Shown here: piece by piece, positions 7,605 to 63,168 of the stretch
Layout: the number at the start of each line of letters is the position of its first letter
How positions within the stretch are numbered: position 1 is the stretch's first letter
Assembly (NCBI RefSeq): GCF_037042905.1
Contig: NC_087251.1
Coordinates: 19,284,001 to 19,348,000, forward strand
Length of the DNA: 64,000 nucleotides
Direction of reading: 5' to 3'
DNA from: Lytechinus pictus
Taxonomy: Eukaryota
Notes under the pieces: generated by a model
Told to the model about the DNA's origin: nothing
Database searches by the model: none
Seen by the model: the letters and a program-made list of their open reading frames with translations, nothing else
Position numbers and translations under genes: made by a program

Positions 7605-7991
7605 TCAGTGATGGAAGGATGTATGGCTACCAGACGCAGATGGCGCTCTAGGTGAAGTAGTGGCCCTTGGTGTCACTTCATCGACACCGGGCATACCACC
7701 ACCACCTGGTCGTCCAACCACGTTATTCATGTAATCCAAGTAGGAGTTATCACTACCCTGTGCCATCTTGCCCTTTGGAAGAGGATTGTTGGTGGTGTCA
7801 ATTTTACCATTGACAACCCTACCATCATTGCCCACCAGTGCGACAGGAGGTGGGTCTAAGGGTCCCATCACGCCTGTTGGGGGCATGATGTCGTTGTAGG
7901 GGTTCCGTTGGGCGTAAGTTGGTGGAGGCATGCCGTACGATGGAAGCGGCTGGGCACCGTAGGCAGGGGGCATGGGGTCGGCCATTGAGTT
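7605..7991 (-). CDS. REJ/GPS gene exon 28 (last): cytoplasmic tail with PPAY, LPSY, PPTY motifs
   Basis: cag acceptor 7994-7992, phase 0; [12 protein letters not shown]...SFHH then TGA. Confidence 0.85.
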   Translation of the reverse strand, partial: NSMADPMPPAYGAQPLPSYGMPPPTYAQRNPYNDIMPPTGVMGPLDPPPVALVGNDGRVVNGKIDTTNNPLPKGKMAQGSDNSYLDYMNNVVGRPGGGGMPGVDEVTPRATTSPRAPSASGSHTSFHH

Positions 7992-10900
7992 CTGTGAGAG
8001 ATAACGATATGAATTCATATGAGCTGACAATAAATACACAGGGTATTTTACTGCTACATTCATAAATTGCTATCATAACAACCTTTTGCAGCCCATGTAT
8101 TCAATAATCAATATCGTAATGAACTCCTCCTCCTCGTAATGAACTTTCTCCTTCTTTTCAATTTTTTCTTGGTCCATTTTAGGAGGGGTGGGGGAACATT
8201 ACCCTTCAAGTGTCCCATCTTATACGCGAGTGGGTCAAACAGCTATCATAACAACCATATAAAATGCTGGCTAAATTTTTAAGAGGAATTTATCCCTGAC
8301 GGCAGGTTACTTTTAATATGAACAAAAACCATGTTAATGAAAGTTAGACGAAAATCTATCAAAAATAATAGACCTCCAAATTTTCAAAGTTTTATCTTTG
8401 TGTCATCACATTCTATCAGGCATACATCATGAATATCAATTTTATAAACTGCCATATTTTTGTTCAAAGAAAGTTTTTAACTGTAATATTTTAATGGTTC
8501 TTGATAACTAGAACATATTTTCCACAGAAGCAAATACATGACCTGTGGCGCGTAACACAAAACTTAGCAATCTTCGTAGAATACATATTTTTTTATTTTT
8601 GATTGCAATGACTACAATATACAATTATGCATCAAAATCTAGCATACGATCAATTGATAAAAGTGTTACGGGACCCTGAATGTATTATAAAAAACCAAAA
8701 ACAATTTGAACTTTTTGAGAACAATATTAACTTTTTTACAAAGTTCTGGAATTTATACTTCTTGATTCACACGTGATCATAAAAAAATTACAAGTTCACA
8801 ACTCCATTATTCCTTGATAATTCTTCTTCAAAACTTCATTATTATATATTTTTTCAATAAATTTCATCCTTCATAAACAAAAACAATTTTACATCAGGAT
8901 AAACTTCCCCTATAAAACTAATGACAAGTACGCTGATAATGAAAGGCATGACACTTACTTGCGGTGGTGGTGGAGGTGGTACTGACTGGCCGTTTTCAAT
9001 ACTGGTAGAAGGTACAGCAGACCTTTTATTAATCTTCATTACCATACAGATCAAGAGAATCACAATGAAGATTAGGATAATAAACCCAGCAGCACATCCG
9101 ATGGCGATATAGAGGACCAAACCTGTAGGAAAAGTAAAAGAATAATGATATGGTGATTATGGATTATTATGAGTAGTTACTTGATATCTGCTTGTAATAC
9201 TGGAAGACCAGTTCGTATAGTTATCACAGTTCCGACGTACCCTATAGATGAATCTGACTTACTGGGGATCTTTCAGAGAAGACATAAAGGCACTTCAATA
9301 GTTTATGCATATACGTCACGTGCTAGCTATGTCAGCGCATACATGATCTTTTCCTAGGCATACTTAACGCCCCAGTTAAAAATACATAAAAAATAATAAC
9401 TCCTAACTAAATTGTTCTATAAATAGATTGTGTTTCCTTGTGAACAAAATGAATGCTTCAACATTTCATGATTAATAATGCTCCATGAGCGAATAAATGG
9501 TCGATTCGGGAACACATTCCAATATACAGATGCACCTTTCAGCTTCCTGGAGGCGACGTCTGCATTAACCTGCTATGTAAGGTATATTCACTAGGCAATG
9601 GTTTTGGAATCCAATTTATATACGAATCGATTGTTGCTATGTCGAGCAAACGTCTTACAGCATTTCATACCATATATTACAGGTCTGTTAGATGACAAAG
9701 GTAAATTCGTCAAAGCAACAACAAAATGTAATATACAGTTGTTTTGAAGAATAGATTGATGGACTGAGGTTGCTCTGGATTTTGTTCAGTGAAGTAACAA
9801 CATGCCGAGATCAAAATGATAATCAAAACAGTCACAAACTGTTTTATCTCTCAAGAAAGGAGGCAAATAATCGATTCACCTTTGATACATGTCTGCAATC
9901 AGCTCAAAGTTTGTTTCATTACGTTCAAAATGGTAAGAATGATTTCCACTAAAATGTGTTACAAATATTCAAATAAGCAAGTTCCTATATACAGGGGTGG
10001 ATCCAGGATTTCATAATATAAACGTATATAAAATGTATCTAGTTGGTTTGGCGAAATATTTCTGACTAAAATGTTTTCACTTCTGAAAATTCTCTCTAAA
10101 ATTACGAAAAGCAAAACAAATACAATAAATAAATGTATATGTTTTCACTATAACATCCAAAGAAGAGCACAGGGGGGTATATATACTCATCACCTCATCA
10201 GATAAGGGAGTCTGCCCCACCCTGGATCCGGGCCTGCATAATTTTATGAAGATTCTAAATCTCTCCCCGTTCTTAAAACGTGTACACTTAGACGAAAGAT
10301 ACTTACTTGTTAGTCCTTCAAGTTCATCAGCTATGTTTAAAAAAAAAGAAAAAGAAGAAAAAGAAATTGACATAATTGTGATACAGCAGAGATTATGATT
10401 TAGTTTTGAAATAATCATTTTTGTTTACATTTGATCTTTTGAACAAGCAATGCAAGATACACTAGAATGATAAAATTAAATATGCAAAATAGGAAGAAGA
10501 AAAAAAACAAACAATCAATTGGCTTCATAATTTCAAAGTTTAAGCCCATTATGTACTGTTTTGAATTGTTTATTTTAAATGCATTCTTGTTATTTTTTTT
10601 TAATTATCAGTATCATAAATGTGTCATGTGTCTGTTCTATTTAATCAACTTATTTATGTATGTTGATATTTTTTTATTGCTGTTGCCGATTTCTGTTAGG
10701 AAGCACCTTGCTCGACAAGCGTTTCTTGAGATACCACTCATATTTTAACCTTTGTAAAATTTTCTGTTGCATCATCTGAGAATAGATAAATGAATTGAAT
10801 ACAATGGTATATGAATTTATGAATAAACAGATAACCCCCCACACACACACACCCACACACATGATCAGGTAAATAGGAAATAATCAGTGTTCAGCTAAAT

Positions 10901-13900
10901 AACTGACTGACTAATACCTTGGTCACATTTGCTCTACGGCGGCCGTACGGCGGCCGTAGATACCTGAATTCGAGAGATTTCTGCGGCGGCCGCAGAAAAT
11001 CTGCGGTGGCCGCAGGGTCGACGTACGGCGGATTCCTACTTTTTACATGCCGTAGGGGTGGCCGTAGAATTTTAACTCAGAGTTATAACATTTTTTCTTT
11101 TCTACGCTCGCCGTAGAAATTAGACTAGCCGTAGGCATGGCGTAGAATGGTCTACGGCGGCCGTACGTCGAGCGTACGGTGGCCGTAGGGCTGCCCTCGT
11201 GTTTTTTTTCCCTCCTTTCCCCTTTTTCTTTTGTGTTATCTGCTCGGGAGCCACCAGTCGCGTATTTAGAATTTTGCACCTCGGGGGCCCGACCTATAAT
11301 TTTGGCCCATGTGTACTTTTTGGGAAAAAAATGGCGACCCCTCCTCGTCTGGTAAACAGGTGCCTTAAATGCATGTTGAATTATCTTATTTCATAATCAC
11401 ATGAAAAAGAGCAACTGCAGACCACTTTTTTAATGATGACTTAATAAAAAGCAAACTATCCATGAATATGATGTAATACCACTTTTTTAAGAACAAATGT
11501 GACCAGGAAGCACAGATATTGCCCTTTCGCCAGCGGCTAACTTGGGTACAATATGACGTTATTATCATTATCATTATTATTATTATTATCATGGGGAGTT
11601 AAATGCTGATTTTTGTTGTTGTTTCATAGGGTGTAGTTCTTACTTAAGACTAACGCTTTTATTAACATCTTAACTTTATTCATAAAAACAAGTTAACATG
11701 GTTAAGGGAGATTTATTTCATAAGTCTAAATAAATAATGCGAACGCGATTTTTGATAACTTGTGTATAGACCTGAACATAGAATATTCTGAGAATATTTG
11801 TAAGCATGAGCAGGATGGGTATCTATCTATCTGTCAGGGCGAGCTGAAAATTGTCTATATTCCAAAATGACCCAAAGTTTGGAAATTCTAAGCATTATTG
11901 GTAATCATGAACAGGATGGGCACTTAAAAATTATTCGATGCGAGCGCGAAGCGCGAGCTGAACTTTTTTATGTTCCGTTCCAAAACTAGACATTCTACGC
12001 AATTTAGGTAATCATTAGGTGATCATTAACAGGATGTCATCTAACTAATCATTCGATGCGAGCGCGAAGCGCGAATCACCCCAAAGGTCGAATTTGCCCC
12101 CCCCCTTCCTAGGTCGAACATTACTGATCGTATAATATTCAGATCAGTGTCAAACATTAATTTGGCGACCCCCCCCCCTTCCTAGGTCGAACATCAATTT
12201 GGCGCCCCCGCACTTTTATTACTTCTCCCCCTTTCCCCTTTTGTCTTCTCTCATTTTCCCTTCTTCTTGTTTCCTTCTCTTTCTTTTCTCCCTTTTCTCT
12301 TTTTCTTCTTTCCCCCTCCTTTTTTATCTCCCTTTTCTTTCCCTTTCTTTCCTCCCTCTTTTTGGCGCCCCCTTTTCGCCTACCCGGGAGCCCGGGCCCC
12401 GAACCCCCCCTCCCTCCCGCCCAGAATGCGCGCATGGGCATAATGCGACACTTTGAAAACTTTCTGAAATGAAATGTCTCATGTAAAAATATCATGATGG
12501 GTGTGACAAGCAATTCACGGTATACTCACTGTAAAGTCCCCCTGCGGCCGCCGTGAGGGCGCCTTGCGGCCACCTCGCGTCTGCAGTAGTATTTGTCAAA
12601 AACCTACGGCCAGCGCAGGGTCGCCCTATAGGGCGACCGTACGTCATGATTTCAAGGGCATACGTCAGCCGCAGATTTTTTTTTCTCCATAAATTAAAAA
12701 ATACGCCGTGCGGCGACCGTAACATATGTGACCGCTAGAGTAAGTGGCCGTGGAAATATTGCGGCGACCGTAGAATTGCTACTCGCCGTAGAAATTTTAG
12801 AATCTACGGCGGCCGTAGCAAATGTGACCAAGGTATTACTGTCTAACTAACTTTATAAAAAGATAATTGAATACATATTAGATGAATAGAAGAGAGATTG
12901 ATAAATAAACAAATGAATGAACAAAAAATGAATAATTATGTAAAAAGATGTAACAATAAGCAATTAAATAAAAGAATGAATGAACAAATTAACCGACTAT
13001 TTACTCAATTAGGCAGGCAAAGCACAAAACAACCATCTTTATTTGAAATAAGTGAATGTACACTGAAGGGATCTCGGCCAATTATTGATTGTTCAGTCCA
13101 TACTCACTTTGAGCGGTGGTAGAAGGCGGTGCCGTGGATTGGACGGGCGTTCCCATAATTGTAAACTCAGTAAGATGCGTGCTCTCACAGGAAACCGTAC
13201 TATCATCTACCGTTGTCGATGTCATACCATCCGTGCTCCAGTCATCGAGATCGCTGTCCCAATAGACGCAGCCGTAAGAGACCCCGGTCAAGGAGATCGT
13301 TAGAGGAAACGAAATGGTGACCGGTGTCGTCAGGCCACTCACGTTCAGTGTGGAACCTGGTGTGTGAATAATACGATAACGAGGATTTTATTTGAAGATG
13401 ACCATTAAAAAATCTGTACAAATTTTAAGAAACGAAGGATATGGAGGCAACTCCACGAAATAACACAATGAAGATGAGGTTTTAAAATTGCAGAGAGTGA
13501 TTTGTGAGAGTAAAGCAGAACTCAATGTCCAGAGCAAAAAAAAAATCGTCTTGCATGTATCCTTTTTTTCTCAGTTACGTTTGATGAAAGTTCCCATATA
13601 CGGGAACGTTCTCTAACCATTTAAATTTTTCAAATCTAGCCCGTTCATCAGATAATTAATTAATCAAGAATTTAATTACTTCTGTAAATCTGCCTAAAAA
13701 TCAGGAGTCCACAAAAATAGTTTGAGGGCCAAATCTTGTTATTGTCTTTGTTTCTTGTCTGTAGTTAGTCATCATTCTGCATGGTACTTTGTAAAAAGTT
13801 ATAAAATGGGCAGTATGAAGGCCTACATCTTTCGGCGAAGTTGTATTATAATGGGTTTGTGTTGACCGTTGTTCAAGATGGGGATTTTAGATATAAATCT

Positions 13901-16900
13901 CCTTTCTCATGACATAAGAAGTTTGTTTTATCAAGTTTGTATGAATCTATGGAATTGTTTAATTCATGTTTAAGTTTGAATAACATCTTTCTTTGATAGA
14001 ATATGTAACAGGTGAGAGATATGATCTACTTACCAGTAGACGGATTAGACAATTCAATTCCAATGATATCAGCTGCTCTATTATCAACATCATCCTGATC
14101 CATTGAGAACGGATCATTACTGGTCGAATAATGAGAGAATGTGATTGTTACTCCAGAACATGTCTCTCCATCGGCACAATCCCACGCACTTCCATACCTT
14201 ACAGACAAAAGAAATGATGATTATATTAGTAATACTGATACTAATGGGATTATGCAACATCTGAGCGCTTTATACAAATGTTTCTAGGCAGGTTACGTTA
14301 TTTCACTGGCTTCAACGTAGGTGATAAGAAGGCGCTTAAGCATTTTTCAGGAATTGATTTCTGCCAAGTTATTCATATAAGTGTAAATGAATTGTATTCA
14401 TAGTCACAGCATTATAAATAGAAAAAAATATGAATTTCTAGTGATTTACTATCCTAGTAGTATACTGCCACCATTTATTTGGAACAATTAAGATTTTTCA
14501 AAGATTAAGATTCAGTCAAAATGATGAATTCAAGTCAAGTCGCCTTCAGGTACATCATAATACAACATTTTGTATGCAGATTATAGTTTCGTAGCCGTTA
14601 ACATGATTGGCTGTTTCAAAATACGCCAAGTAGATTATTTTTTGAAGGAGCAATCGATTAACGCAAATACGTGGGAATCAATTAGAATTGTAATAATATT
14701 TATCAAAAAATAAAAGAACGTACAAACTGTTGAGTTCACTGCCGAAATCGATAGTCGCTGCTCCAGACCCGGAACTGGCAGATTCAAAACTCCCTGTAAG
14801 AAGAGCTCGCATGACGCCTACTGTGACGTCAGCCGAGATAATCTCTTGACGAGGTGCACCAAGCGCCAACGCTCCTGTCATTGATGTCGTGATCTTGCTT
14901 GTGATTTTACTGTGGTGGAAAAAGTTAAAGTCAAGTTTACCAGAGAATGTCCCAAAGAATTGAAATTAAATGTCTGGTATAATGTTAAGTAAGTGATGCA
15001 GGAAATAAGCTGTATTTGTGTAAATGAAAGTAAACCCAGAGAATACAATAAACATACTGATACAGAACAACCCGTCAAATGTTATCAATGCATCTGCTAT
15101 TTAAAAAAATGATAAAAATTGGCTATTTGTCATTTATAGTGGTTTTGGGATCTTAGGGGGGTGGGAAAACTGTCAAGGGGTAAACTTTAAAAATATGTTT
15201 TAAAATAGCTGCACTCTATTTGGTTGTAATCTCGTTCAATCACATTCAAATTAAGTGATCAAACACACAATGGTAATAGAAATAATAAATATTCTTCTTT
15301 TTTAACACTTTTTTGTGTATTTTGCTCAAAGAATGCCTTCCATATAACATACTTGATCTTATTAAGCATGGGTCCGTTGTCTGTGGCAGTCAGTCCATCT
15401 CCAATGGTAGCTAGCTGATAGAGGATACTCTCTGCACTGGAATCAGGTATGGTAACGTCTTCACTCACGTATACATTCACGATCTGGAGGATGTAGCCGA
15501 GGAATGTATCTGATTGAAGGAAACATTACAAAGGAGTAGACTAACGATTGACAACATCGACTGTATTTTCTTTTATGTAATTTAAAAGCTTGTAATATGC
15601 AAAGAGTCTGGAGACAGCAATATCATTCAATTAAATTCAAGTTAAATCAAATTTAAGAATGGACTTTAAGGATTCAGATCCAATACTAGCCCTGAATCAA
15701 AACTCTACATCAATTCCTTACCACAGCTTATTGATATTCCTGGAAATGTCAATAAGCTGACACTGTGTCTTTTATAACACAACAGTGCCATGTGTCTCGA
15801 AAAAAGATATCGTGTATAAAAATATCATTAATTGTGGAGGTGCCGTGGCCGAGTGGTCTAAGGCCTGACTAGACATTGAAAGTCCGGGGTTTGATCCCCG
15901 GCCTAGGCACATATGCCGGTGAGCATTGCACCTTATCATCAGTGCTATTTTATTCTGCATTCAAATAAATGGAAATGCTCTATGCATTCTTGGTAAATAG
16001 GTGTGAGTATGATTTTTTTTAAATGGAGTAACAAAATTCATATGTTCAAATTGATGAAATGAAATATACTCATCGAGGAGCAGCAAGTTAAACAATGGCT
16101 TTAGGCAGTGCAGATTCGGTAGAAGGGTTGACAAAAGAAAACTTGTATTTTCTGGACTAAACTTGATTAAGATCTTACCTTGATCTGCTAGAGTCAACTG
16201 AGCTGGACTGACAGCTGCGATCTGGTCGATGAGAATCTGAGCGGTGGTCGTATCAAGAACTGTATTACTTAATACATTGGCGATCAGGACCATTTGTTCG
16301 GCTGCTGTTGCCGATGTCTCGTCGGATGCTACACGACGTCGTCTTGAAGCACTTTCGTCCACCTTGGATGCAAGCATATTACGATTAGCCAGAGCTCCGA
16401 TGTGGTCACCTGGTAAGAAGCAAAGAAGACTGGTTAACATCTTTTGATCATTATACATGATGATAGAGAGTAACATAACTACTAAATTGTTAAATACGTT
16501 ACCGACCTTACAAATTGTCGAATTCCAATGAATCATCGGTTTGAATGTGCCAAGCCAATTTTGGGTTGATTTTGCCACTTTTTTGGTAGGACACCAAACG
16601 ATTTCGTATTTTGACCAACTCCTTTTTGTTAAAGTGTAGACATGTCAGTTTATTTTTAAGTTCGTGCACATGCGTTTATACCTATATCATAGTCATTTAT
16701 CTGATACACAATTCAATGTAGAAAATGCCCCTTTTCAATATAAGTCATGCAGGAGATCGTTCTGAGGATTAAAGCAACGATTTTTATGTCTATATAGTTA
16801 GACTCCTACCAAATGGCGGCACTGTGTAAGCAATCCTTCACATTCAAATGAAGAACTTGAAAGAGTAAACAGAAGGAGTAGGGGAAGGGAGGCTGAAGAG

Positions 16901-16968
16901 GAGAAGGAGAATAAATAGGAGAAGGAGGAGGAGGAGAAGAAGAAGAAGAATAAGAAGAAGAAGAGGAA

Positions 16969-17000
<32 letters not shown>

Positions 17001-32000: not shown

Positions 32001-35000
32001 TCCAATGAAAGTAGGTGTAAAAATATTCTTAAAAAACATCAAAGAAGTCACATTTCACGAGCTGACATTTGAGAATGATTGTTAATGTCTGAGAATTTGC
32101 AAAGACGAAGGAAGATTTGCAAAACATACAACGAACTATATATATCTTAATAAGTTTGTAATTGCCTAAACTAATTTTCTAGCATTTTCATTTTATTTTT
32201 ATTTTTAGGAATATTTGGTATTATTTACCAACCTGCCCAAATAAAATATATTTAATGAGCCGAATTCCGATAGCCGAAGCCAAAAAGTCTCAAAATGAAA
32301 TGAAGATAAACAAAAATTAATATCGGATAGATATGGGCCAAACTTCCATTATTCCCATTTTGAAGATGAAAAATTATTTAACTAAACTTGAAGATGAAAG
32401 AATCATGATCAGAAATCCTCTCTTTCAGCTAACCTTAAATGTTCTTTTTATGTATCATTCATAATATCGTCCTGATATTTCTTGATTTAACTTAGTTGTA
32501 AATCATTTTGATTATAGTATGATAGTATTCGTTTTCACTCAAAATCAGCCCTCCCTCCCTAATCCATGCACGGACACCAGCAAATAAGTCGAAACTGGTC
32601 AAACTCAGTCAAAATTATTAATAAAATTAACGTTAAAACTCTTCAATTGAATAAAAATGAATCTACCAGAATTAAGTCAATATAAACAAAAATATAATTC
32701 TTGATTCGTTAACTAGAATGGAATGAAATTTAAAGTTAGAGCCCACTTTGCGGTTAGTCATCGTATTTCGTAATCCGTTATATATTTTCTGTAATAAAAC
32801 GTCTGTAATGCACTCATTTAAGATGAGATGGACTAAGTGAAAAAAATAAACGAGTAAGATGTTCTTAGCTGTAAAGATTTTTCTATAATGCATTAATGGG
32901 GTAAAATGTTGGGACCTTGTGTGGTTTTATTTTCAGCGAATTTGGTTGGTATACATCCCCTCATTAGATGACTAAAACTGAATAAATGGGTTTTAAGAAC
33001 ACCTCTTTCATTTCGATACTCTTTACTACCACAATCCTATTTAAATATCCGATTCGCGTTCTTGTGTCACCAATTCCGTATTTCTCCCAAGGATTTGCGT
33101 AGTTATTCATGTCTTACAGTTATTTGTCTCCCCATTAAAAGAACATTTTCAATTAAAAAAAAAATGTATATGTTATTATTGACTACCTAGATTATGCACA
33201 TATATATTCTAAAATTCATAAATCAACCAAGCTATTTAACAAACGAAAGCTTTCAAAGTATTGCGTGGTTTCAATATTTGTTATGATCTCGTTTTTTTGA
33301 AGACATGACGGATCAATATTTGGACTCTGTCACTCATGTCACTCAAAGCCTTGCGACTGATCCGATCGTACAGTTGAATTGTGCGATTGGTAGCACATGA
33401 CGAACATTTCCATCAGAGAATTAATGAGAAATTGGTTATACGATTAATCCTAACACTTTGTATAGCATCATCGAGATGCTTTTAATTGGCTACTCCGGGC
33501 TCAAAATAGTTATTTCTAAATAAATAAAGTAAAAAATCATCAAACAAAACGCTGCAATTTTCATCAAAATCTGATAGGAAAATATTAAGTAATTGAATTG
33601 TAAAGATTACGAGAATTTTGTGAAAACAATTATATGCACGCCTTCATGAATATGCACTAGGTCGTCTGATGATGTCATGTCCCCACTTTCCTTTATTACG
33701 TTATTACATGAAATTATACTTATTTCACATGTTCATGGATGTTCCATGTAAAAAGTTACAGCAATGAATATTCAATGCATTAGATCAGTTTTCAAACAAT
33801 TTTCTTGGTGGTCTTAGTGGTCAAAATTTAAATAAATCTTACTTCATAAAACAAAATACAAAACAATCAGTGAGAGTATGACATCATCAGCTTGCTCATT
33901 GCATATTCATGAATGCATGCATAGAACTGTTTCACCGAAATAATGCAATGCTTTAAAATGTCATAGCTATGTTATTTGTCAGATTTTTTGATGAAATTTT
34001 CAGTGCTTTTTTTTTCATCTGTTCAAATCATTTGATTTTCAACCTTGAGCACCTATTTAAATATCTTGCTACTGAGATATATAACGAGATGTCATGGGGG
34101 AAGGGGAGGGGGGGGGGTAAATGACCAGCGGCGTATCGTGGGTCATGGCATGGGGGGGGGGGCACGAGTTACTTATTGAGAGCTCAGTAGCCAACACAGT
34201 GACCTGGAAAATATACATTTTAAGGACTCTTTGTAGGAATTCATGAAGAGCATACTTATCTAAGGACCCTACTGATCAAATGATACGATTGCCAAGCGCG
34301 AGGTGAAAATATTTGATATTCAGATCTGAAAATAGTATATTCTAAGTACCAGCTTTTTAAAAATAATATCTCACTAAATATGCAATGCAATTTTTGTATG
34401 TCTTTTGTTTGTTTAAAGGTCAAGTCCACCCCAGAAAAATGTTGATTTGAATAAACAGAGAAAAATCAAACAAACATAACACTGAAAATGTCATCAAAAT
34501 CGGATGTAAAATAAGAAAGTTATGACATTTTAAAGTTTTGCTTATTTTCACAAAACAGTGATATGCATAATTCAGTGACATGCAAATTAGACAGTCAATG
34601 ATGTCTCTCACTCACTATTTCTTTTGTTTTTTATTGTTTGAATTATACAATACTTCATTTGTTTATATATTTGACAATAAGGACAAATTTGATTGAATCA
34701 TAGTATTAAACAATGCTCATTCCACACTTGACAATGAGGAGAAAAATATGATATTCCATATTTCACATAATAAAATACAAAAGAAATAGTGAGTGGATGA
34801 CGTCATCAGTCTCCTCATTTGCATATAACTGTTTTGTGAAATTAAGCAAACATTTAAAATGTAATAACTTTCTTATTTTACATCCGATTTTGATAAAGTT
34901 TTCAGTGTTATGCTTGTTGGATTTTTCTGTTTTTATTCAAGTCAACTTTTTTGGGGTGGATTTGTCCTTTTTGACATAACACATGACACGTGAACTCCGA

Positions 35001-38000
35001 GCCTCCCCGTAATTACGCCACTACACATGATCATTCGGAGGTTTAAATTGTACAATATCCTGCAGTGGCGTACAGATGGGGGTCTAAAAAAAAAAGAGAA
35101 AGAAAAGAAAAGACAGAAGGGAAAAAGTGATATTTTCTGAATATCATGTAAAAATCTATCAGAAAATTGGGTTTTAGTAATAAATTTATTGAATTTTTTG
35201 CTCGCTCGCTTTGCCCGCTCGTGAACTATTTATGAAGTTTTCGTGATACGCCATATCTAGCCCCTTCACATTTTATTTGGCTTTAATAGTACGCCACTGA
35301 TTTCCGGGTAGGGCTGTTGGGTTGCGAATCAGAATTTATTTCAGGGACCACAGAATCGGGGAATGAGGGGCCACCTATTTTTTCAGTAAAAATGTACAAA
35401 AACATCAATAATATCTTATTTCTTTTGGCTCTGTCTCTCACTTTTAAAACCTTTCCGCAGCCCCTGTATTTCCCTCAACAATTTACATGTTATCATAATT
35501 GCATTATTATATCAAACGATACGCCTTTGGTGACAACAAATATTGAGAGAGATTTGGATGTTTCATCACTGTTTTGTAAAGTATCTCTACCTCATCCCCT
35601 GATGCCATGTTACGGAAATTATTTCACATTATAGTAAAACAACAAATTACTCTTCGTCCGAAATCTTTGATGGACGTTTATTGGAAGGAGTTCGCAACAA
35701 ATGAGTCAAAACTACCGCTTATGAATGGGAATAAAACTCAAAAGTTTTTTTCAAAGGAAAATAGAAACGTAAAGATAAACAGATGGGTGGAACAATATCG
35801 GACAAACATAAGATGTAATCACTACACAAGTTAAAGAGGAATTTCAAATTGGTCTAACAGAGGTATCGTCGCTGTGATGTAGAAGCTAGGGACAATCCTG
35901 CAATTACTTTTTCTTCTGCGGAGTCCATTATTTTTTTTCACTTACAATGGCGCCAGCTTGCAAGTGAATCAGATTCCGAATGAATATGACACGGAATTAT
36001 GTGGTATCAGCTGAAAAAAATATACTAATTTCTGAGTTACATTCACTCCGAACTGACGCCATTACTAGTCGACTTCCAGACACAAGAATATTATTCTCCG
36101 CCAAATTAAAGTGACGAACAAACCTACCTGGTGTTACACAAGTAGAGGAGCAGTCCATGTATTTGCTGCCACCGGTGTAGTTGACTCGAGAATACGGCTC
36201 GCAGAAATCACAGGTATCCTCCACCCAGTCTCCATCGCATACACCACGGCAATCGAGCCGGTCATCATTGGCGTCCTCATCCAGGCCAGAGTCACCACCT
36301 ACGTGATTGTGGAGGGAACGGGGAGCGGGGAGGGGGGGGGGGTAATATTTATATGCAAGTATAATTGCGAAGCATTATGCAAATGCCATTCAGGCAATCA
36401 TATTAAAGATGATGATCATGATGATGAAGAAGAAGAAGAAGAAGATGATGATGATGAAAAAGTTCTTAATATCACAGATATCTCAATATGCTCCGGTCTT
36501 AATATCTCAGAGGGCATATAGAGTAAGGATATCAATAGAGTTTTGGTTCAGAATAATGTAAAGATTAGGATTAGGGTTTATTTATCTTATATAGTTTTGG
36601 TTGGCTTAACGTGCAAACTTTCCATCGGAGCTATTGGCGCCGGAGCAAATTTCATGGAACCGCGATGTAATCTAAGTGAAGATATTATTATTATTACCAT
36701 TATTATCACTATTATTATTATCATTATTATTATTATTATCATCATCATCACTATCACCATCATCATTAATACTATCATTATTAATATTGTTATTATCATC
36801 ATCATCATATCGCCTGTCTTTAATGCAATTTCATCGATGAATCATTTTATCCCATTAAACCATGCTGGTATAATTAGGCATTTTTAACATTTCTCCATAA
36901 ATAAAACAAGTGGAACGCCTCTGGCAGTCTCGCCTGCATTACGCAATTCGAAATAGCAGCAGTGCTGCCTCTGATAACAGCTAATTAATAATTATTCACA
37001 GAAGAAAACACTAATATGATAATAAAATATTATGTCCAATCACCCAAAATGACCTTTGACCATGATCATGTGACCTAAGACATGTGGAAAACAATCATTC
37101 ATACTTGATTACCCTTCTGTCGATGTTTCATGAGCTAGAGCCATAAACTTTCTAAGTTATGACGCCAATCCAACACAGCCAGATGTCATTAACATTTAAA
37201 TTACCTTTGATCTTTGCCATGTTCCTAAAACGCGCACAGGGTATTCAGGGATACATTGCTGCTCTTAAGTCCAAGTTTTATGAACTAGATCCATAAACTT
37301 TTAAAAGTCTGATAAAAATTCCTCAAATACCCCAACATAGCTAAAGTTCGTTGACCCTAAGTGACCTTTGACCTCGGTCATGTGACCTGAAACTCGCACA
37401 TGATATTCAGGGATACACAGTTGCTCTTATGTCCAAGTTTCATGAACTAGATGCATTAATTCCTTTAAAAAACCCAACATGGCCAAAGTTCGTTGACCTT
37501 AAGTGACTTTTGACCTAAATCATGTGATCTGAAACTCAGGCAGGATCTTCAGTGATGCACTACTACCCTTATGTCTAAGTTTTATGAACTAGGTCCATAT
37601 ACTTTCGAAGTTATGACAACATATCAAAAACTTAACCTTGGTTTAGATTTCGATATTGATTCCCCCAACAAGGTCGAAGTTCATTGACCCTAAATGACAC
37701 TTGACCTTGGTTGTGTGACCTGAAACTAAGACAGGATGTTAAGTAATACTTGATTACCCATATGTCCAAGTTTCATGAACTAAGTCCATATACTTTCTAA
37801 GTAATGATGACATTTCAAAAACTTAACCTTGGTTGAGATTTCAATGTTGACGACGCCACCGTCGCCGTCGGAAAAGCGGCGCCTATATAGTCTCGCTCTG
37901 CTATGCAGGCGAGACAATAAACGAAGGTCTACCTACCAACACATTCACCGCATTTATCATAGAAAGCAGTAGCATTACAGGAACCAGAGCAATCCCATGT

Positions 38001-41000
38001 TTCTTTGTAGTCCTTTGCCTGTTTACATAGACCACAACGGTCAGCGCCGAAGTCATCGTCTCTGTTCGTCCTTCCGCCAACGCATTCGAAGCAGTAGTTG
38101 ATGTAAGCGTCCCCGTCGCATTCACCAGCGCAATCGGGCTTGGCATCACCGTTGCAGACACCGGCACAGTCTTCACGAGCGGGTCCATTGCATTCACCGG
38201 CACAATCGACGATTCCCTTGCATTCCTCTGTAAACATAAACACAATCAAACTTTCATTATCATATGGAAACATTTTATTCTCAATGTGTAAAAGCTCTAC
38301 AACCAAGGGATAAAACTGAAGGAAAACACAATTGCATGAACAAAATTTAATCATTCATTAATAAAGAACACTCTTTTTGATGAATTTACAAAACATCTAA
38401 ACTCATTCAACATGCCTTAACATCAATTTGATTAGCCCTTCGTGATATTCAGAGCAAATAATTGTTTTAATTCAAGTTATTTTTGCTTCTAAAATCTTTT
38501 TAGACATCAATCATGATTAGAGGTCAGATAAGGATCCTAGACTTAAAACAACAAAAACCGACCAACTATTACTAACCAACAACTTCTTGGGTAAAGGCTT
38601 GTACAACAGATAGGCACATATCGCTCCTGTCTTCAAATCCAATTATGTTCAAAATGTCATCGATGTCCATCCTGAAAGGAGCAGATGATGACCACCATCC
38701 CCATGAGTCCCAATATGAATACCAACTGCTTTCTTCTCCTTCAAAGAGGTCCTCGGATGTGATGAGCTCCTCCATGGTGTCAACGAAACGCTCGCAGCGG
38801 TCTACATTCTCCAAAAGCCCGATCACCTCACCAGCCATACGTTCCATGAACTCTTCAAGATCATCTCTACCGTCGACCATGCTGTCACAGACCCTATCCA
38901 AACTACCCATACCGGTGATGACGCCCAAAACATCGTCCATTACATCAAGAGTCTCTTGTGTGATGACTCGTGGACTATCCCTGAAGTAATGAAAATCCTC
39001 CGCTGATGAATCCCAGTACCACCACTGACCGTAATTGTCCCACCATTGCAATTCTTCAACATAGTCCCGAACCTCCTCAATCTGATCGCAAAACGCCAAC
39101 CCATATTCATCAATTACCCAGAGGCCAACATCAACCATGACACTCCTAACAACGTCTAGAATGCTTTGGTCTGATATCAGTACTTCTTTAATTACACCAC
39201 CCACTTCAACACAGACACCTTGTGGATCTCCTTCTTCAATAACACTGGTATCAAATTCAAAGGTATCAGTGATAAATTCAAAAAATTTATCTAAGTCGAA
39301 CGGACGAAGGGACAGAGGATAGTCTGGTCCATAATAGACTGGAACAATGATTTCTTCACATTCTGATATCAAATCTTGTTGTTCAGAACCGCGCCTGCTG
39401 AAAATCCTACAAAGAGACTCGACTGGGGACATACCGTGGACACGGGTCATGTATTGTTCCATGACATCACAAAATGTTTCACTCATCTCCGGAAAGTTGT
39501 CTGCGTTGTACATTTTAGCTATCATCTTGACAGCCGTTTCGAATGGAATGAGGGGTAGGATCATTCCCGACTCAAAGGCCTGTTCACCAAGATAACCCAA
39601 ATAATCCTCCACGTAACTGTACTCGCTTACATCTGGGAGATTTACAGCACCGACTCTGATCTTATTTGCTGAAAAGGTCTCCACAACGAAAGAGCATACA
39701 TCAGAAGCACTTGAGTATCCTGTCATTTTTTCAAGAGCTTCACTCGTGAGGATTTCAGCATTTATGATTTCGTTGACAAAGTTTCTGCAAGAACGGAGGT
39801 TCGTCGTCATGTCTAGGACGCTGTCCACCATGTTGTCTAGAAAATCATATAGATCTTCTTGGCTGATGTCTGGGTCTCCCGATAAAGAGGCCATCTGTTG
39901 ACACATTTGTTCCTCACTGTTCCAGTCACCAAGATGTCGGAAGATGACCGAGAGGACGTTATCAAGGGAGTCAATTTCAGGGATTTTGTACCACCAGAGC
40001 GTGCTGGATTCGTCGAAAGAGTATGAGACCTCTGAAGACCAGCTAGAAGACCAAGATGATGGCCAAAAATGTCTCCAATCATAGTATCTCCAACAAGTAG
40101 TGCTGTAAAGCCAGGCGCTACTGTAGTGGGCAATAGCTGAAATCAGACCATTGGCCTTTTCTTTTATTCCATCATTATCCAATGAATATAGGTTGGTGTA
40201 GGAATTGCACAATTCATATGGGCCATTGTCGCTGATATTCAATGCGTAAGGAATCGTATCAAATAAACCTTCTAGGAATATATCTTCAAGGTAGTCGTCC
40301 CAATCCTCCCAATCCTCCCAGTCATCGTAATCATCTTCGTGAGAGACTTGGTAGCAGAGTTTGAGGAATTCATAAAAATTTTCATCATCCAAAGCCTGGC
40401 ACATTTCTGTCGCAACTCTATCCATTAACGCATCTGGAACAGTCTCGCAGAATATGAGAGCACCTTCTCGTAAATTATCGGCCTGGTATATTCGACCTGC
40501 AAGCTGGATCCAAATTTCGATTGGAACCCTTTCTATGACGTATGGATCAATTGGATTCCATTCACCTTCATAACTGGATCCCCACCACCATGAAGAGCTT
40601 GACCACCACCAAGAAGATGACGACCACGAATATGACGATGATGACCATGGAAAGGACGATGAAGACAGCGATGAAGATGACCATGAAAAGGACGATGAAG
40701 ACGGCGATGAAGATGACCATGAAAAGGAGGATGACGGAGATGAAGATGACCATGAAGAGGAGGATGACGGAGATGAAGATGACCATGAAGAGGATGACGG
40801 AGATGAAGATGACCATGAAGAGGATGACGGAGATGAAGATGACCATGAAGAGGATGACGGAGATGAAGATGACCATGAAGAGGATGACGGAGATGAAGAT
40901 GACCATGAAGAGGATGACGGAGATGAAGATGACCATGAAGAGGAGGATGACGGAGATGAAGATGACCATGAAGAGGAGAATGACGGAGATGAAGATGACC

Positions 41001-42606
41001 ATGAAGAGGAATACGATAGAGATGAAGAAGACCAGGAGGACAGCGAACTCCAAGATGAAGAAGACCATGATGAAGACCAGCTATAGGAAGATGAAGGGAA
41101 TGAAGACCATGAATATGAACTTTCCTCTGGGAACGATGAAGGAAATTCAATATCAAAATCGGCATCTTCGTCGAAAGAATCAATAATTGACGTACAGAAC
41201 TCAGATTGAGTGATGTTGATGAAGCTGAATGTCATGTTCATCAAGTCTGGGGCCTCTTCCACAAGATTTTCTAGCATGCTTTCACAGAATGATGCCGAAG
41301 AAACAAGTTCAAATAGATTCGATTTCATTGTATTTAATATGCCATCAAGTGCATCGCGATCCCCATTCTTTTCATCAAGAGCTGCTTGGACGATATTATC
41401 ACAATAATCATCTTTGTTTGAATAGTCACCGAGAGTCATCATCACATTGGATACAAAATCATGAATGGAAAAATCGGGGAAATACCAGCTACTGCCGCTA
41501 AAAGAGTCTATGTAAGAGCTTTCCGACCATGAGCTGCTGAATCCAGAACCCCTTCGACATTTGTTAATCTCATCGGAGAGGACGAGTATGATGAAATCAT
41601 AAGCGAATTCATCCATTATGTCGCTAACGCTGCTTGAATCATACTGCATGGTACCGGTCACTCCACGACAAACAGAATGGTCGCTATTCGGATCAACAAT
41701 GCCAAGGGCATCCGTGAACTGATCGAAGATAAAGTCCAATTCTCCACCTCCATCATCCCAGTCTGATTCCCACCACCAGTCGTCAGATCCGGACCACCAT
41801 TCGGAATACTCCCATTCTGAATCCCAATCCCACCAAGATGACCAGGAACTCCACCAGGACCAGGATGACCAGGACGGTGAACTCCAGGATGAATCCGACC
41901 AAGACCAAGAGGAAGATGACCATGATGACGAGGACCAAGACGATGAAGACCATGATTCCGAGGACCAAGACGAAGAAGACCATGATGACGAGGACCAAGA
42001 CGAAGATGACCATGATGACGAGGACCAAGACGATGAAGACCATGATGACGAGGACGAAGACCCTTGAGAGGACACGGCAGATGAAGATCCACCTCTTCTA
42101 TAGCGGCCTTCATCTTCAATATCGAAATCTCCCTCAGCTAGTCCTATGATACCTTCACATACCCCATTGAAATCGGCATCCTGCGGATCATCAACGAGAG
42201 TCTCACAAAGGAATGTTGTCATCTCTTCTGGAAGGAACTCTCCAAGAAATTCGAAATTGTCGCACATTATTCCGATGGATTCCGATATGGTGTCGGCATT
42301 GATGGCCTGGCCGAGTGCCTGTATCACTTCATGAATATCCACAGGGAAGTCGAACCAGCTTCCTTCGGACGAATACCGCCACCATGACGATCCATACCAG
42401 GATGAATCCCACCACCATGAAGATCCACCATATGATGATCCCCACCACCAAGAAGAATCATACGACGATCCCCACCACGAATCCCATGAAGATCCCCACC
42501 ATGACGAATCCCACCCATATGAAGAATCACCCCAATACCACGAACTGGAATCCGCCTTTACAGTAGCTGCTCCAAGGAGCAGGACTAGTAGAAACAGGCA
42601 CCGCAT
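7605..42606 (-). CDS. Whole gene model: 28-exon, ~2945-aa single-pass REJ/GAIN-GPS (polycystin-1/REJ family-like) membrane protein
   Basis: Hand-spliced exons sum to 8838 nt (2945 aa + stop); all 27 introns are GT..AG with matching phases. Order: signal peptide, novel repeats, Cys-rich repeats, IPT-like x2, REJ-like, GAIN/GPS, TM, Pro-rich tail. Confidence 0.85.
8959..9122 (-). CDS. REJ/GPS gene exon 27: single transmembrane helix
   Basis: cag acceptor, gtaagt donor; [28 protein letters not shown] followed by basic KINKR. Confidence 0.9.
9992..10236. mobile_element. Short MITE (CAGGGGTGGATCCAGG-type ends)
   Basis: caggggtggatccagg at 9992 and inverted cctggatccgggcctg ending 10236; no clear TSD. 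Confidence 0.5.
10307..10330 (-). CDS. REJ/GPS gene exon 26: 24-nt microexon (TDELEGLT)
   Basis: Long polypyrimidine tract + tag acceptor, gtaagt donor, phase 1-1. Confidence 0.7.
10912..12838. mobile_element. Non-autonomous TIR element (CGGCCGTA-rich arms) with a nested G/C-tract repeat at ~11254..12440
   Basis: taataccttggtcacatttgct at 10912 and its inverse agcaaatgtgaccaaggtatta ending 12838; repeated tacggcggccgta motifs in both arms; TA/TWA target ambiguous. Confidence 0.75.
13108..13356 (-). CDS. REJ/GPS gene exon 25: GPS motif and S/T/P stalk
   Basis: [16 protein letters not shown]...[11 protein letters not shown]; cag/gtgagt sites, phase 1-1. Confidence 0.92.
14034..14197 (-). CDS. 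REJ/GPS gene exon 24 (GAIN region)
   Basis: aag acceptor, gtaagt donor, phase 2-1; [10 protein letters not shown]...ELSNPST. Confidence 0.85.
14724..14909 (-). CDS. REJ/GPS gene exon 23
   Basis: cag/gtacgt, phase 2-2; [17 protein letters not shown]...ELNS. Confidence 0.85.
15353..15509 (-). CDS. REJ/GPS gene exon 22
   Basis: cag/gtatgt, phase 1-2; [14 protein letters not shown]...MLNKI. Confidence 0.85.
15838..15960 (+). mobile_element. tRNA-derived SINE head
   Basis: GGTGCCGTGGCCGAGTGGTCTAAGGC (A box) and GGGTTTGATCCCC (B box); cloverleaf incomplete. Confidence 0.65.
16179..16409 (-). CDS. REJ/GPS gene exon 21 (helical region, RRRR furin-like site)
   Basis: cag/gtaaga, phase 1-1; [29 protein letters not shown]...LADQ. 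Confidence 0.85.
16865..17022 (+). repeat. (GAA/GGA)n polypurine microsatellite
   Basis: Seen directly. Confidence 0.85.
17088..17214 (-). CDS. REJ/GPS gene exon 20
   Basis: aag acceptor, gttaga donor, phase 0-1; [14 protein letters not shown]...KTFA; needed to reconcile phases of exons 19 and 21. Confidence 0.8.
17643..17825 (-). CDS. REJ/GPS gene exon 19 (REJ-like)
   Basis: cag/gtgagt, phase 0-0; [21 protein letters not shown]...YVIT. Confidence 0.87.
18343..18491 (-). CDS. REJ/GPS gene exon 18 (REJ-like)
   Basis: cag/gtcagt, phase 1-0; [16 protein letters not shown]...GPTSCEF. Confidence 0.87.
19193..19297 (-). CDS. REJ/GPS gene exon 17
   Basis: cag/gttaga, phase 1-1; [14 protein letters not shown]...ITIDK. 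Confidence 0.85.
19471..19638 (-). mobile_element. Candidate SINE with 7SL-RNA (Alu-domain)-like head
   Basis: 5' ACTGGGCGTTGTGGCGTGCGCCTGTAATCCAAGCT resembles the SRP RNA 5' end; B box GGTTCGAGCCC; SINE core-like TTTCGGATGGTGACGTTAAAGGTCGGTCCC; (CA)n tail. Confidence 0.7.
19973..20099 (-). CDS. REJ/GPS gene exon 16
   Basis: tag/gtaaat, phase 0-1; [14 protein letters not shown]...VDTTS. Confidence 0.85.
20118..20295 (-). mobile_element. Degenerate tRNA-derived SINE
   Basis: B-box-like GCTCGAAACCC, LINE-like 3' end and (ATT)n tail. Confidence 0.5.
20728..20940 (-). CDS. REJ/GPS gene exon 15 (REJ-like)
   Basis: cag/gtatat, phase 0-0; TTDNSACW...[14 protein letters not shown]...GNPPK. Confidence 0.88.
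21479..21711 (-). CDS. REJ/GPS gene exon 14 (REJ-like)
   Basis: cag/gtgagg, phase 1-0; [16 protein letters not shown] is a typical REJ/PKD motif. Confidence 0.9.
22275..22426 (-). CDS. REJ/GPS gene exon 13
   Basis: cag/gtgaga, phase 2-1; [13 protein letters not shown]...GSLP. Confidence 0.87.
22610..22875 (+). mobile_element. Degenerate tRNA-derived SINE
   Basis: GGTCCAGTGG A box, GGGTTTGAAGTCCC B box, core-like ccatcgacccag, (ATT)n tail. Confidence 0.55.
23232..23445 (-). CDS. REJ/GPS gene exon 12 (REJ-like)
   Basis: tag/gtaagt, phase 1-2; [22 protein letters not shown]. Confidence 0.9.
23740..24012 (-). CDS. REJ/GPS gene exon 11
   Basis: cag/gtaagg, phase 1-1; [38 protein letters not shown]. 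Confidence 0.9.
24291..24461 (-). CDS. REJ/GPS gene exon 10
   Basis: aag/gtgagt, phase 1-1; AFLWVEF...LGKGAWCIW. Confidence 0.85.
25099..25296 (-). CDS. REJ/GPS gene exon 9
   Basis: cag/gtaggc, phase 1-1; ETVWMSAG...SINGQD...AQFSST. Confidence 0.87.
26093..26254 (-). CDS. REJ/GPS gene exon 8 (second IPT/TIG-like start)
   Basis: cag/gtaagt, phase 1-1; [13 protein letters not shown]. Confidence 0.87.
26598..26672 (-). CDS. REJ/GPS gene exon 7
   Basis: cag/gtaagt, phase 1-1; [24 protein letters not shown]. Confidence 0.85.
27099..27243 (-). CDS. REJ/GPS gene exon 6 (IPT/TIG-like)
   Basis: cag/gtaagt, phase 0-1; [18 protein letters not shown] pattern. Confidence 0.9.
27565..28922 (+). mobile_element. 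5'-truncated, frameshifted non-LTR retrotransposon (CR1/L2 group) in intron 5
   Basis: RT motifs [20 protein letters not shown] and LFADDT from 27588; frameshift near 27750; ORF 27793..28524 (LNVKKT, FLGVYI, YCNILW); 3'UTR and (AATA)n tail at ~28890..28922. Confidence 0.93.
29217..29319 (-). CDS. REJ/GPS gene exon 5
   Basis: cag/gtgagt, phase 2-0; [29 protein letters not shown]. Confidence 0.88.
29566..29719 (-). CDS. REJ/GPS gene exon 4 (Cys-rich)
   Basis: tag/gtacat, phase 1-2; [12 protein letters not shown]...CAGCDGVPA. Confidence 0.88.
33490..34060. mobile_element. Older palindromic MITE related to the 34417 family
   Basis: aattttcatcaaaatctga (~33556) and inverted ttgatgaaattttcagtg (~33988); shared tgatgtca/tgacatca internal motifs. 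Confidence 0.5.
34126..35023. mobile_element. CAGTGGCGTA-ended MITE hosting a nested element
   Basis: cagcggcgta at 34126 and tacgccacta ending 35023. Confidence 0.5.
34417..34968. mobile_element. Palindromic MITE with TTAA|AGG end (Kolobok-like)
   Basis: ~150-bp arms: aggtcaagtccacccc..catcaaaatcggatgtaaaataagaaagttat versus ataactttcttattttacatccgattttgat..ggggtggatttgtcct. Confidence 0.8.
35063..35299. mobile_element. hAT-like MITE
   Basis: 11-bp TIR cagtggcgtac / gtacgccactg; degenerate 8-bp flanks atatcctg / atttccgg. Confidence 0.65.
36128..36298 (-). CDS. REJ/GPS gene exon 3 (Cys-rich)
   Basis: tag/gtaggt, phase 1-1; [37 protein letters not shown]. Confidence 0.88.
36682..36810 (+). 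repeat. (ATT/ATC)n microsatellite
   Basis: Seen directly. Confidence 0.85.
36904..37917 (-). mobile_element. Helentron-associated (HINE/DINE-1-like) non-autonomous element with about five internal 140-190-bp tandem units
   Basis: Subterminal inverted repeats gtctcgcctgcat (36927) / atgcaggcgagac (37903), terminal hairpin, T-rich insertion site, repeated tgacctttgacc..tgtccaagtttcatgaactag units; second copy at 47667. Confidence 0.8.
37937..38227 (-). CDS. REJ/GPS gene exon 2 (DCAGxCxG Cys-rich repeats)
   Basis: cag/gtaggt, phase 1-1; [32 protein letters not shown]. Confidence 0.9.
38577..42606 (-). CDS. REJ/GPS gene exon 1 (4030 nt): signal peptide, Ser/Trp repeats, three 8-Cys acidic modules
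   Basis: ATG in accatcATG context; [18 protein letters not shown] signal peptide; G|gttagt donor after 38577, phase 1, matching exon 2. Confidence 0.9.
40570..41130 (-). repeat. Coding minisatellite (30/33-bp unit encoding [10 protein letters not shown])
   Basis: Six identical aggatgacggagatgaagatgaccatgaag units at 40761..40940, flanked by diverged 33-bp variants. Confidence 0.95.
41760..42090 (-). repeat. Coding tandem repeat (15/30-bp unit encoding SSSSW)
   Basis: gaccatgatgacgaggaccaagacgaNgaN units at ~41900..42060. Confidence 0.9.
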
Positions 42607-62601: not shown

Positions 62602-63168
62602 CTGCAAAGAGAAATAAAGAATATAGAAAGGAAAATTCATTAAGCATCAAGAATGATTATATTTTAGAGGTAAATTAAATTTATTAAAATCACATACACA
62701 TAAATAAAAAGGAACAAATCTTAAAGCTAAGAGCAGGGGAGAGGGAGAGAGAATGCAAATGAGAAGGAAGAAACTAGAAATGACAGAAAAGAAGGAGAAA
62801 TTAAGATAAAATAATAAAAATCTAAGCTTATATCAAAAGATGCATGTAACTAAACCAAAGATAAGTCTTTTATAAAACTGAGAATAGTTAATTCAAATAT
62901 TTACAGTGGGTGTTAACATGTTTAATATACAGGGCTTAGAAAGAATTCATCAAATAACTATTCGAAAGTATGTCATTGACATTTAATAAATCACAATAAC
63001 TTAATCAGATGTTCATCTTTACGCAATTCCCTGTGATAAAAATGTAGGTTAGAAATAGATTCTCCCCCTTTACAATCTTAAACCAGCTGCCAATAAATCC
63101 TAATCCATAGTGGAAAACTATGATGGGCTGTCAATGCATTCTAATTCAATTCTATGAAAAGTATTATA

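Follow-up and report, generated by a model that had tools for sequence, protein, structure and literature searches.

The Lytechinus pictus counterpart of sea urchin REJ9: a spliced 28-exon gene for a single-pass REJ-GPS protein with predicted eight-cysteine helical modules

A spliced gene of 28 coding exons on the minus strand of the window (the whole 64,000-nt stretch of Lytechinus pictus DNA analysed here) encodes a protein of 2,945 aa with one predicted membrane span. We regard it as nearly certain, taking the gene itself, the splicing of exons 1 to 15, the REJ and GPS matches and the orthology jointly, that this is the L. pictus orthologue of Strongylocentrotus purpuratus SpREJ9. As to its role, we propose with a probability of about 0.6 that REJ9 is a self-cleaving surface tether on late-embryo and larval cells.

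The REJ9 coding span (7605..42606, minus strand; LOC129264802) runs from the ATG at 42606 to the end of the TGA at 7605, with exon boundaries fixed by script. Exons 1 to 7 lie at 42606-38577, 38227-37937, 36298-36128, 29719-29566, 29319-29217, 27243-27099 and 26672-26598; exons 8 to 14 at 26254-26093, 25296-25099, 24461-24291, 24012-23740, 23445-23232, 22426-22275 and 21711-21479; exons 15 to 21 at 20940-20728, 20099-19973, 19297-19193, 18491-18343, 17825-17643, 17214-17088 and 16409-16179; and exons 22 to 28 at 15509-15353, 14909-14724, 14197-14034, 13356-13108, 10330-10307, 9122-8959 and 7991-7605. The spliced coding sequence (8,838 nt) forms one frame with the sole stop at its end. The introns are in phase, 27 of 27 have GT-AG ends, and the mean pyrimidine fraction upstream of the acceptors is 0.73. 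The translation shows 0 differences from RefSeq XP_054758721.2 ("uncharacterized protein LOC129264802 [Lytechinus pictus]", P0002), so NCBI already annotates the locus as one gene in this species. In a protein search among 1,879 long candidates, XP_054758721.2 was the only protein matched by part of exon 1. An older RefSeq version (P0011) is 99% identical to the model and carries one additional 10-aa Ser unit plus 3 aa inserted close to the C-terminus; the differing number of Ser units in P0002 and P0011 suggests a length polymorphism or an assembly difference.

Splicing was examined with reads from four runs (X1, X5, X19 and X20) on 20650-40530, a region covering 14 introns. X1 and X5 are presumed to be RNA, which is supported by the spliced form of their contigs. 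A single 6,523-nt contig of run X1 skipped all 14 model introns with sizes exactly as modelled, including the 349-nt intron at the exon 1-2 joint (38577/38227). Run X5, which has a second species label, skipped 13 of the 14 and also contained the exon 1-2 joint; it differed from the model at 48 positions over 1,954 nt of exon 1. The raw RNA runs X19 and X20 (same species label, tissue given as a code, about 6% of each examined) contained 0 of 14 joints and left exon 1 uncovered, so not all samples express the gene. The read test covered exons 1 to 15; the 13 introns after exon 15 are based on the RefSeq identity and on colinear orthologues. The earlier note had proposed 28 phase-consistent exons with exon 1 joined to exon 2; the first is borne out by the single 2,945-aa frame, and the second was found in contigs of two species labels. 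Its warning that annotation may split the gene also proved apt. In Apostichopus japonicus, two consecutive accessions hold the exon 1 part alone (PIK61043.1, P0031, "hypothetical protein", 1,343 aa) and a 723-aa protein named "receptor for egg jelly protein 9" (PIK61042.1, P0030). The later RefSeq model for that animal (XP_071840802.1) is whole.

Several other features were noted in the window. A 755-aa open frame at 60392-62656 (minus strand) has several C2H2 zinc fingers (Pfam E 6e-24) and probably represents a large exon of a transcription factor gene, the neighbour on the upstream side. Downstream, on the same strand as REJ9, a 361-aa open frame with ankyrin repeats (1487-2569, minus strand) is apparently a single-exon gene. 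REJ9 intron 5 contains a broken reverse-transcriptase remnant in two frames, antisense to REJ9 (27513-28521, plus strand; RVT_1 E 1.4e-8 for the first piece), likely a decayed LINE-type element. Introns 2 and 3 hold high-copy repeats (~36900-37900 and 33900-35200), with tandem units of 142 nt and 191 nt at 37317-37850. Related copies of these intron repeats are abundant in runs X19 and X20, those at 36562-37887 being strongly biased towards one strand.

Ten S. purpuratus REJ cDNAs were cloned by Gunaratne et al. (2007; PMC1934368), in whose text the PKD1/REJ family is defined by the REJ domain. SpREJ9 (GenBank EF203419) is described there as a full-length cDNA with start and stop determined experimentally, encoding 2,965 aa in 29 exons over ~31 kb, with a signal peptide, Ser-rich tracts at 173-284 and 528-694, a REJ domain, a GPS and one TM (PMC1934368). 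When the SpREJ9 qPCR primers were placed on our spliced model they fitted with 3 mismatches in 21 and 4 in 23 nt, straddling exon junctions 14/15 and 16/17 respectively, and gave a product of 350 bp, equal to the published size. None of 60 shuffles per REJ9 primer fell below 6 mismatches. The three of the nine other primer pairs that were tried (REJ1, REJ8 and REJ10) had 7 to 10 mismatches and yielded no sensible product. The two proteins are alike in length (about 2,950 aa), signal peptide, position of the two Ser-rich tracts (164-264 and 486-684 in L. pictus), REJ domain, GPS followed by exactly one TM, and lack of PLAT. They differ in exact length (2,945 vs 2,965 aa), exon number (28 coding exons, UTR exons unmapped, vs 29 in total) and gene span (35 vs ~31 kb). 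The REJ domain of SpREJ9 was described as "partial" with 319 aa under the ~600-aa definition then in use (PMC1934368), and is not comparable with the L. pictus domain, which covers the full 452-position Pfam model. The name "receptor for egg jelly protein 9" is borne by the Apostichopus relative. The SpREJ9 protein itself was absent from the results of all protein searches, and orthology therefore rests on the primers and the described features. The claim in the earlier note that the architecture matches no described protein has to be withdrawn, because SpREJ9 was published in 2007 with signal peptide, Ser tracts, REJ, GPS and one TM; it is a known protein of the same overall architecture, described but not functionally characterised. 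Single-pass REJ-GPS proteins are a described subgroup (SpREJ1, SpREJ8 and SpREJ9), SpREJ1 and SpREJ8 being likewise single-pass (PMC1934368). The text of the SpREJ9 paper names no domain upstream of REJ and mentions no 8-Cys modules, Cys-Gly repeats, IPT domains, basic site or tail motifs (PMC1934368).

The following domains are all encoded on the minus strand. A predicted signal peptide (aa 1-18, 42553..42606) was placed by the N-terminal hydropathy peak and its cleavage point was judged by eye. The rest of exon 1 encodes 24 Cys in three groups of eight. Each group corresponds to a module of ~300 aa with Cys spacings of 16-20, 15-17, 49+, 37-41, 52-67, 31-39 and 30-60. Module 1 (aa 86-480, 41167..42351) was assigned by Cys spacing and by a module HMM that scored 21 bits over its second half; between its Cys3 and Cys4 lies an inserted Ser/Trp tract (aa 164-264, 60% Ser). 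A second Ser/Trp tract (aa 486-684, 68% Ser, 40555..41151) precedes module 2 (aa 686-980, 39667..40551, 61 bits), and module 3 follows at aa 1005-1343 (38578..39594). Tandem repeats of 30 nt at 40640-41034 and 41903-42061 encode the Ser/Trp tracts. The N-terminal region has 16.5% Asp+Glu vs 3.7% Lys+Arg, and the corresponding regions were acidic in 16 of 16 proteins counted (14.5-22.9% Asp+Glu).

An HMM built on module 3 matched module 2 (61 bits), part of module 1 (21 bits) and repeats in relatives, and gave no match in three distant REJ proteins. It matched 29 of 151 stored proteins, all of them REJ8/9-like, a result that is partly circular as the HMM was built from 17 of the 29. When modules 2-3 were run against the full set of 1.84 billion representatives, 11 matches were found: four named, or clustering with a name, as echinoderm (Acanthaster, Holothuria, Apostichopus and Amphiura) and seven unnamed. 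AlphaFold2 models of module 3, made with 16-17 sequences, were predicted all-alpha with middling confidence (pLDDT 65.5 for the whole and 73.2 for the C-terminal 252 aa). The first model is weakened by alignment A1, in which the first ~60 query columns were paired with the neighbouring module of relatives. With the two module 3 models, Foldseek returned 0 matches at E<=0.001 and VIA, against 48,161 chains, none with Z>=5 (best 4.4 with 56 aligned and rmsd 3.2, and 4.9 with 80 aligned and rmsd 4.3). Pfam scans of exon 1 and of module pieces gave nothing above cut-off; CCD_aECM (E 0.31) and four others (E 0.04-0.35) among 9 Pfam queries were taken as chance. An ESM Atlas search with module 3 and P0020 gave no usable match and shows neither novelty nor absence. 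Eight Cys per module held exactly in 8 of 16 proteins; the other proteins, several of them fragments, deviated by up to 3, so that module copy numbers are approximate. The modules diverge fast, with 14-39% identity among six REJ9 orthologues (a range lowered by P0003 and P0005, which are incomplete at the N-terminus). On these models the tip would consist of tandem 8-Cys, all-helical modules with neither a Pfam nor a fold match; absence of a match proves no new fold.

The modules are followed by Cys/Gly/Asp repeats (DCxGxCxG and CxxCxGG; aa ~1344-1570, exons 2-5, 29256..38227). The final Cys-Gly unit resembles an ADAMTS Cys-rich domain, a weak match from a nine-protein profile. Next comes a predicted beta-sandwich stalk of IPT/TIG-like and further Ig-like domains (aa ~1571-2000, exons 5-13, 22414..29255), for which TIG matches in relatives were used and the other boundaries are putative. 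Pfam TIG matched the first IPT-like domain of the Diadema orthologue (E 1.6e-5) and also P0069, and no IPT match was obtained in the L. pictus protein itself. Of the two IPT-like domains in the earlier note, the first is thus supported through the Diadema orthologue and the second was confirmed by no library. The REJ domain (aa 2001-2436, exons 13-21, 16378..22413) matched PF02010 with E 4.5e-84 and 283 bits (cut-off 25) over profile positions 1-451 of 452. Among the relatives, a Kazal domain separates modules and Cys-Gly repeats in the Amphiura filiformis protein XP_072037596.1 (P0025), and in Holothuria leucospilota KAJ8029481.1 (P0022) the repeat-plus-IPT block appears doubled by eye.

Just after REJ, between predicted helices, the alignment shows a putative tetra-arginine furin-type site (aa 2448-2451, 16333..16344). 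All 9 echinoderm proteins aligned have a basic cluster here, with R2449 and R2451 as invariant columns. The predicted GAIN domain (aa ~2405-2745, 13136..17151) was assigned from the Pfam GPS match and from PDB GAIN matches. PF01825 was found on exon 25 (13270-13151; E 4.1e-10, 40 bits, cut-off 22.5) and was unreported in the whole-protein scan; the GPS motif reads His-Leu/Thr at aa 2732-2734. A nine-protein profile matched the GPS end of adhesion-GPCR GAIN structures in PDB with a best E of 8e-8. Two of the usual four GPS Cys are kept, and all 9 echinoderm proteins, drawn from echinoids, holothurians, an asteroid and a crinoid, retain the HL/T(S) motif. The GPS consensus is given as His-Leu/Ile-Ser/Thr, with the cut made in the ER and the halves staying together, and sea urchin REJ and PKD1-like proteins are stated to autoproteolyse (PMC13197933). 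We infer from the motif that REJ9 would likewise self-cleave at its GPS. The only internal hydropathy peak (hydrophobic segment ~2760-2796) corresponds to a single predicted TM helix at aa ~2763-2790 (9040..9122), and each full-length echinoderm relative checked also has one such peak. The Pro-rich cytoplasmic tail (aa 2791-2945, 7605..9039) contains PPxY, V-[A/T]-L-V, a Tyr-containing block and a penultimate His. All 7 REJ9-type tails have PPxY, V[AT]LV and His at -2, against 0 of 2 REJ8-type tails and 0 of 1 coral tail; the tally is descriptive, as the motifs were picked from the same alignment.

By a search with aa 1345-2820, 9 proteins among 7,999 scored were found: the protein itself, four orthologues (Diadema 69% identity, Holothuria 52%, Acanthaster 46% and Anneissia 44%), a Diadema paralogue and three distant REJ proteins. 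Among six REJ9 orthologues the Cys-Gly repeats are the most conserved large region (61-83% identity), followed by REJ (50-72%) and GAIN (38-65%); outside echinoids the TM is poorly conserved (13-29%). Full-length relatives that end after one helix and a short tail were found in 7 other echinoderm-named records and in a coral. In a quick tree with long-branch outgroups and an unresolved base, P0015 (Diadema) and P0022 (Holothuria) branch together as a separate clade (SH-aLRT 96) and may represent a REJ8-type paralogue. They share with REJ9 the module array, Cys-Gly repeats, REJ, basic site, GPS HL-T/S and one TM, but have more modules and lack the long Ser tracts, PPxY and the other REJ9 tail motifs. 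Among shorter proteins, the segment aa 1345-1800 had 111 matches, many of them bacterial or protist proteins sharing the Cys-Gly repeats only. The best was an uncharacterised hemichordate fragment (XP_077978789.1, Glandiceps talaboti; 35% over aa 1356-2275) with the same repeats and REJ; the record begins at the Cys-Gly repeats and the tip lies outside it. KAL9978304.1 (Oculina patagonica, 1,639 aa), an uncharacterised protein from the same cluster as a coral match, aligns colinearly with REJ9 between the start of the repeats and the GPS (28% over 1,373 columns, E 2e-99) and has one TM. Where REJ9 carries the helical modules, the coral protein has a short stalk of Ser/Thr/Met repeats. Its GPS reads His-Ala-Thr, its tail is very short, and it lacks the basic site and the tail motifs. 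Judged from these sequences, the core without the modules is older than echinoderms. Neither the basic site nor the set of tail motifs is essential to the design, since both are missing from the coral protein and the latter also from the REJ8-type paralogues. The Cys-Gly repeat also appears to be a mobile extracellular repeat, occurring in many marine bacterial proteins, and its echinoderm copies have no Pfam match. Several guanylate/adenylate-cyclase proteins of Thecamonas trahens (P0064, P0081, P0110, P0112, P0116 and P0118) carry the same repeats. In P0090 (JGI), a REJ-GAIN protein, they stand after the GPS-like region and not before REJ, with a short hydrophobic C-terminus by eye.

Comparison with characterised families places REJ9 as follows. 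SpREJ8 (3,274 aa, one TM) is single-pass like REJ9, and its transcripts are reported to peak at blastula (PMC1934368). SpREJ1, the sperm receptor for egg jelly, is also a single-pass sea urchin protein with REJ and GPS and is alone in having a shown ligand, the fucose sulfate polymer (PMC1934368); it differs from REJ9 in its 1,450 aa, its C-type lectin and EGF domains at the tip, its testis-specific expression and the misfit of its primers. Polycystin-1, PKDREJ and SpREJ3-6 likewise have REJ and then GPS before the first TM, but go on to a PLAT domain and 11 TM that include a channel-like part, whereas REJ9 stops 155 aa after its TM. The 11-TM polycystin-1 type was rejected for REJ9 on the single hydrophobic segment and the lack of a PLAT or channel match by Pfam in the L. 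pictus protein, and no such match was found in the six relatives scanned. Adhesion GPCRs (ADGRF1, ADGRG1 and latrophilin-3) have a homologous GPS end (E 8e-8 to 2e-6) with the His-Leu-Thr consensus; REJ9 differs from them in lacking a 7TM region and two GPS Cys, and has ~30 residues between cut and TM. That class was also rejected, as the His-Leu/Ile-Ser/Thr GPS is present by sequence, yet there is one TM rather than seven. The view of the earlier note that this is one single-pass gene with REJ and GPS, neither channel nor GPCR, is upheld by the same findings.

In the mechanism that we propose, the chain would be cut at two places. The GAIN domain would sever it at His-Leu/Thr (2733/2734) within the ER, a step reported for suREJ3 and for polycystin-1, and the Arg cluster 2448-2451 would serve a furin-type protease as the second site. 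On their motifs, both cuts are probable. The IPT/Ig/REJ stalk would hold an acidic, probably glycosylated tip of modules and Ser/Trp tracts far from the membrane, where the tip would bind matrix or a neighbouring surface. This picture of a long stalk presenting a binding tip is drawn from the anatomy of the chain and is tentative, being slightly short of an even chance. Pulling or shedding at the two cuts may then release the ectodomain, and the membrane stub would be turned over or would signal via its PPxY/Tyr tail. The cut at the basic site could mean ectodomain shedding or a mere nick in a helical bundle. The PPxY motif is presumably recognised by Nedd4-type ligases with WW domains. The proposed stage fits reports that the SpREJ9 message increases after 22 h and by 65 h ranks with the most abundant of the REJ transcripts (PMC1934368), and that REJ9 peaks at pluteus in Mesocentrotus (M. 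franciscanus) (PMC13672419). Among the points against the tether reading are the GPS with 2 of 4 usual Cys and the lack of exon reads in X19 and X20. No study of REJ9 cleavage, location, ligand or partner, or of REJ8/9 function, was present in the literature found (subscription journals, figures and one supplement lay outside it); hemichordate cell-atlas and Nematostella hair-cell papers deal with other genes.

It is hardly credible that the single-pass form is an artefact, with exon 1 a separate gene or the whole a truncated 11-TM polycystin. Exon 1 alone is a stand-alone 1,344-aa ORF, several database entries resemble exon-1-only products, and read-based splice support ends at exon 15; against this, the exon 1-2 joint in contigs of two species labels refutes the separate-gene version, single-TM full-length relatives exist in the seven echinoderm-named records and the coral, and the start, stop and full cDNA of SpREJ9 are experimental (PMC1934368). 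REJ9 could instead be the ligand-sensing or force-sensing half of a pair, its helix joining a 7TM adhesion GPCR or a PKD2/11-TM REJ channel that signals. Related cases are on record: in mechanosensing, Drosophila Cirl acts through a 1TM form paired with its 7TM form (PMC13197933), SpPKD2 is a partner of SpREJ3, and calcium rises when antibodies bind SpREJ1, itself single-pass (PMC1934368). For REJ9 we consider it unlikely, because a TM identity of 13-29% beyond echinoids is unexpected for a fixed intramembrane interface and because REJ9 owns conserved tail motifs.

The same tail motifs, found in 7 of 7 REJ9 orthologues from crinoid to echinoid, suggest an intracellular job and make it rather improbable that REJ9 is the precursor of a shed structural protein of an apical or mineralising matrix, with the stub as a delivery anchor only. 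The acidic N-terminal regions (16 of 16) and the conserved basic site would suit such a precursor, and a coral REJ protein was found in skeleton and proposed to be shed, but it is multi-pass with PLAT (PMC4890752); the main text of one sea-star skeletal proteome paper mentions no REJ, PKD or polycystin. There is a slim chance that the modules bind lipids or microbial surfaces in the manner of saposins and that REJ9 is a feeding or immune-recognition receptor of larval gut or epidermis. All-helical, Cys-stapled modules with fast divergence (14-39%) and variable copy number would agree with this, and we take the 8-Cys module to resemble saposin in general form. The Cys spacing differs from the six-cysteine saposin pattern, and saposins were absent among the fold-search matches listed for the models of middling confidence and from the Pfam scans to E 10. 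Expression is highest at pluteus (PMC13672419), in favour of a larval receptor, and SpREJ9 is reported to be low in coelomocytes (PMC1934368), against an immune one. We retain the self-cleaving tether as the main reading. A bolder form of it is doubtful at present: that the module is an undescribed fold, of which echinoderms added 3 to 6 fast-evolving copies atop an old single-pass chassis (Cys-Gly repeats, IPT, REJ, GAIN and one TM) that corals already have, and that REJ9 is cut twice and signals via its own PPxY/Tyr tail without a 7TM or channel partner.

Both the gene and its single-pass REJ-GPS arrangement were published in 2007, in a paper that flagged REJ8 and REJ9 as odd, with no known domain upstream of REJ (PMC1934368). 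The module array, the second cleavage motif, the tail motifs and the coral counterpart were not in the literature found, within the same bounds as above. The present analysis supplies a domain map and adds to it a repeated domain that fits no class, a second cleavage motif and tail motifs, both conserved, and a counterpart in a coral. L. pictus is called a genetically enabled model in the title of a reference in PMC13672419, which makes a knock-out and a cleavage test of REJ9 practical. Both would bear on the purpose of GAIN cleavage when there is no 7TM region to activate. If REJ9 is indeed a twice-cut, tail-signalling protein, it would be a clean model for GAIN cleavage apart from G-protein activation.
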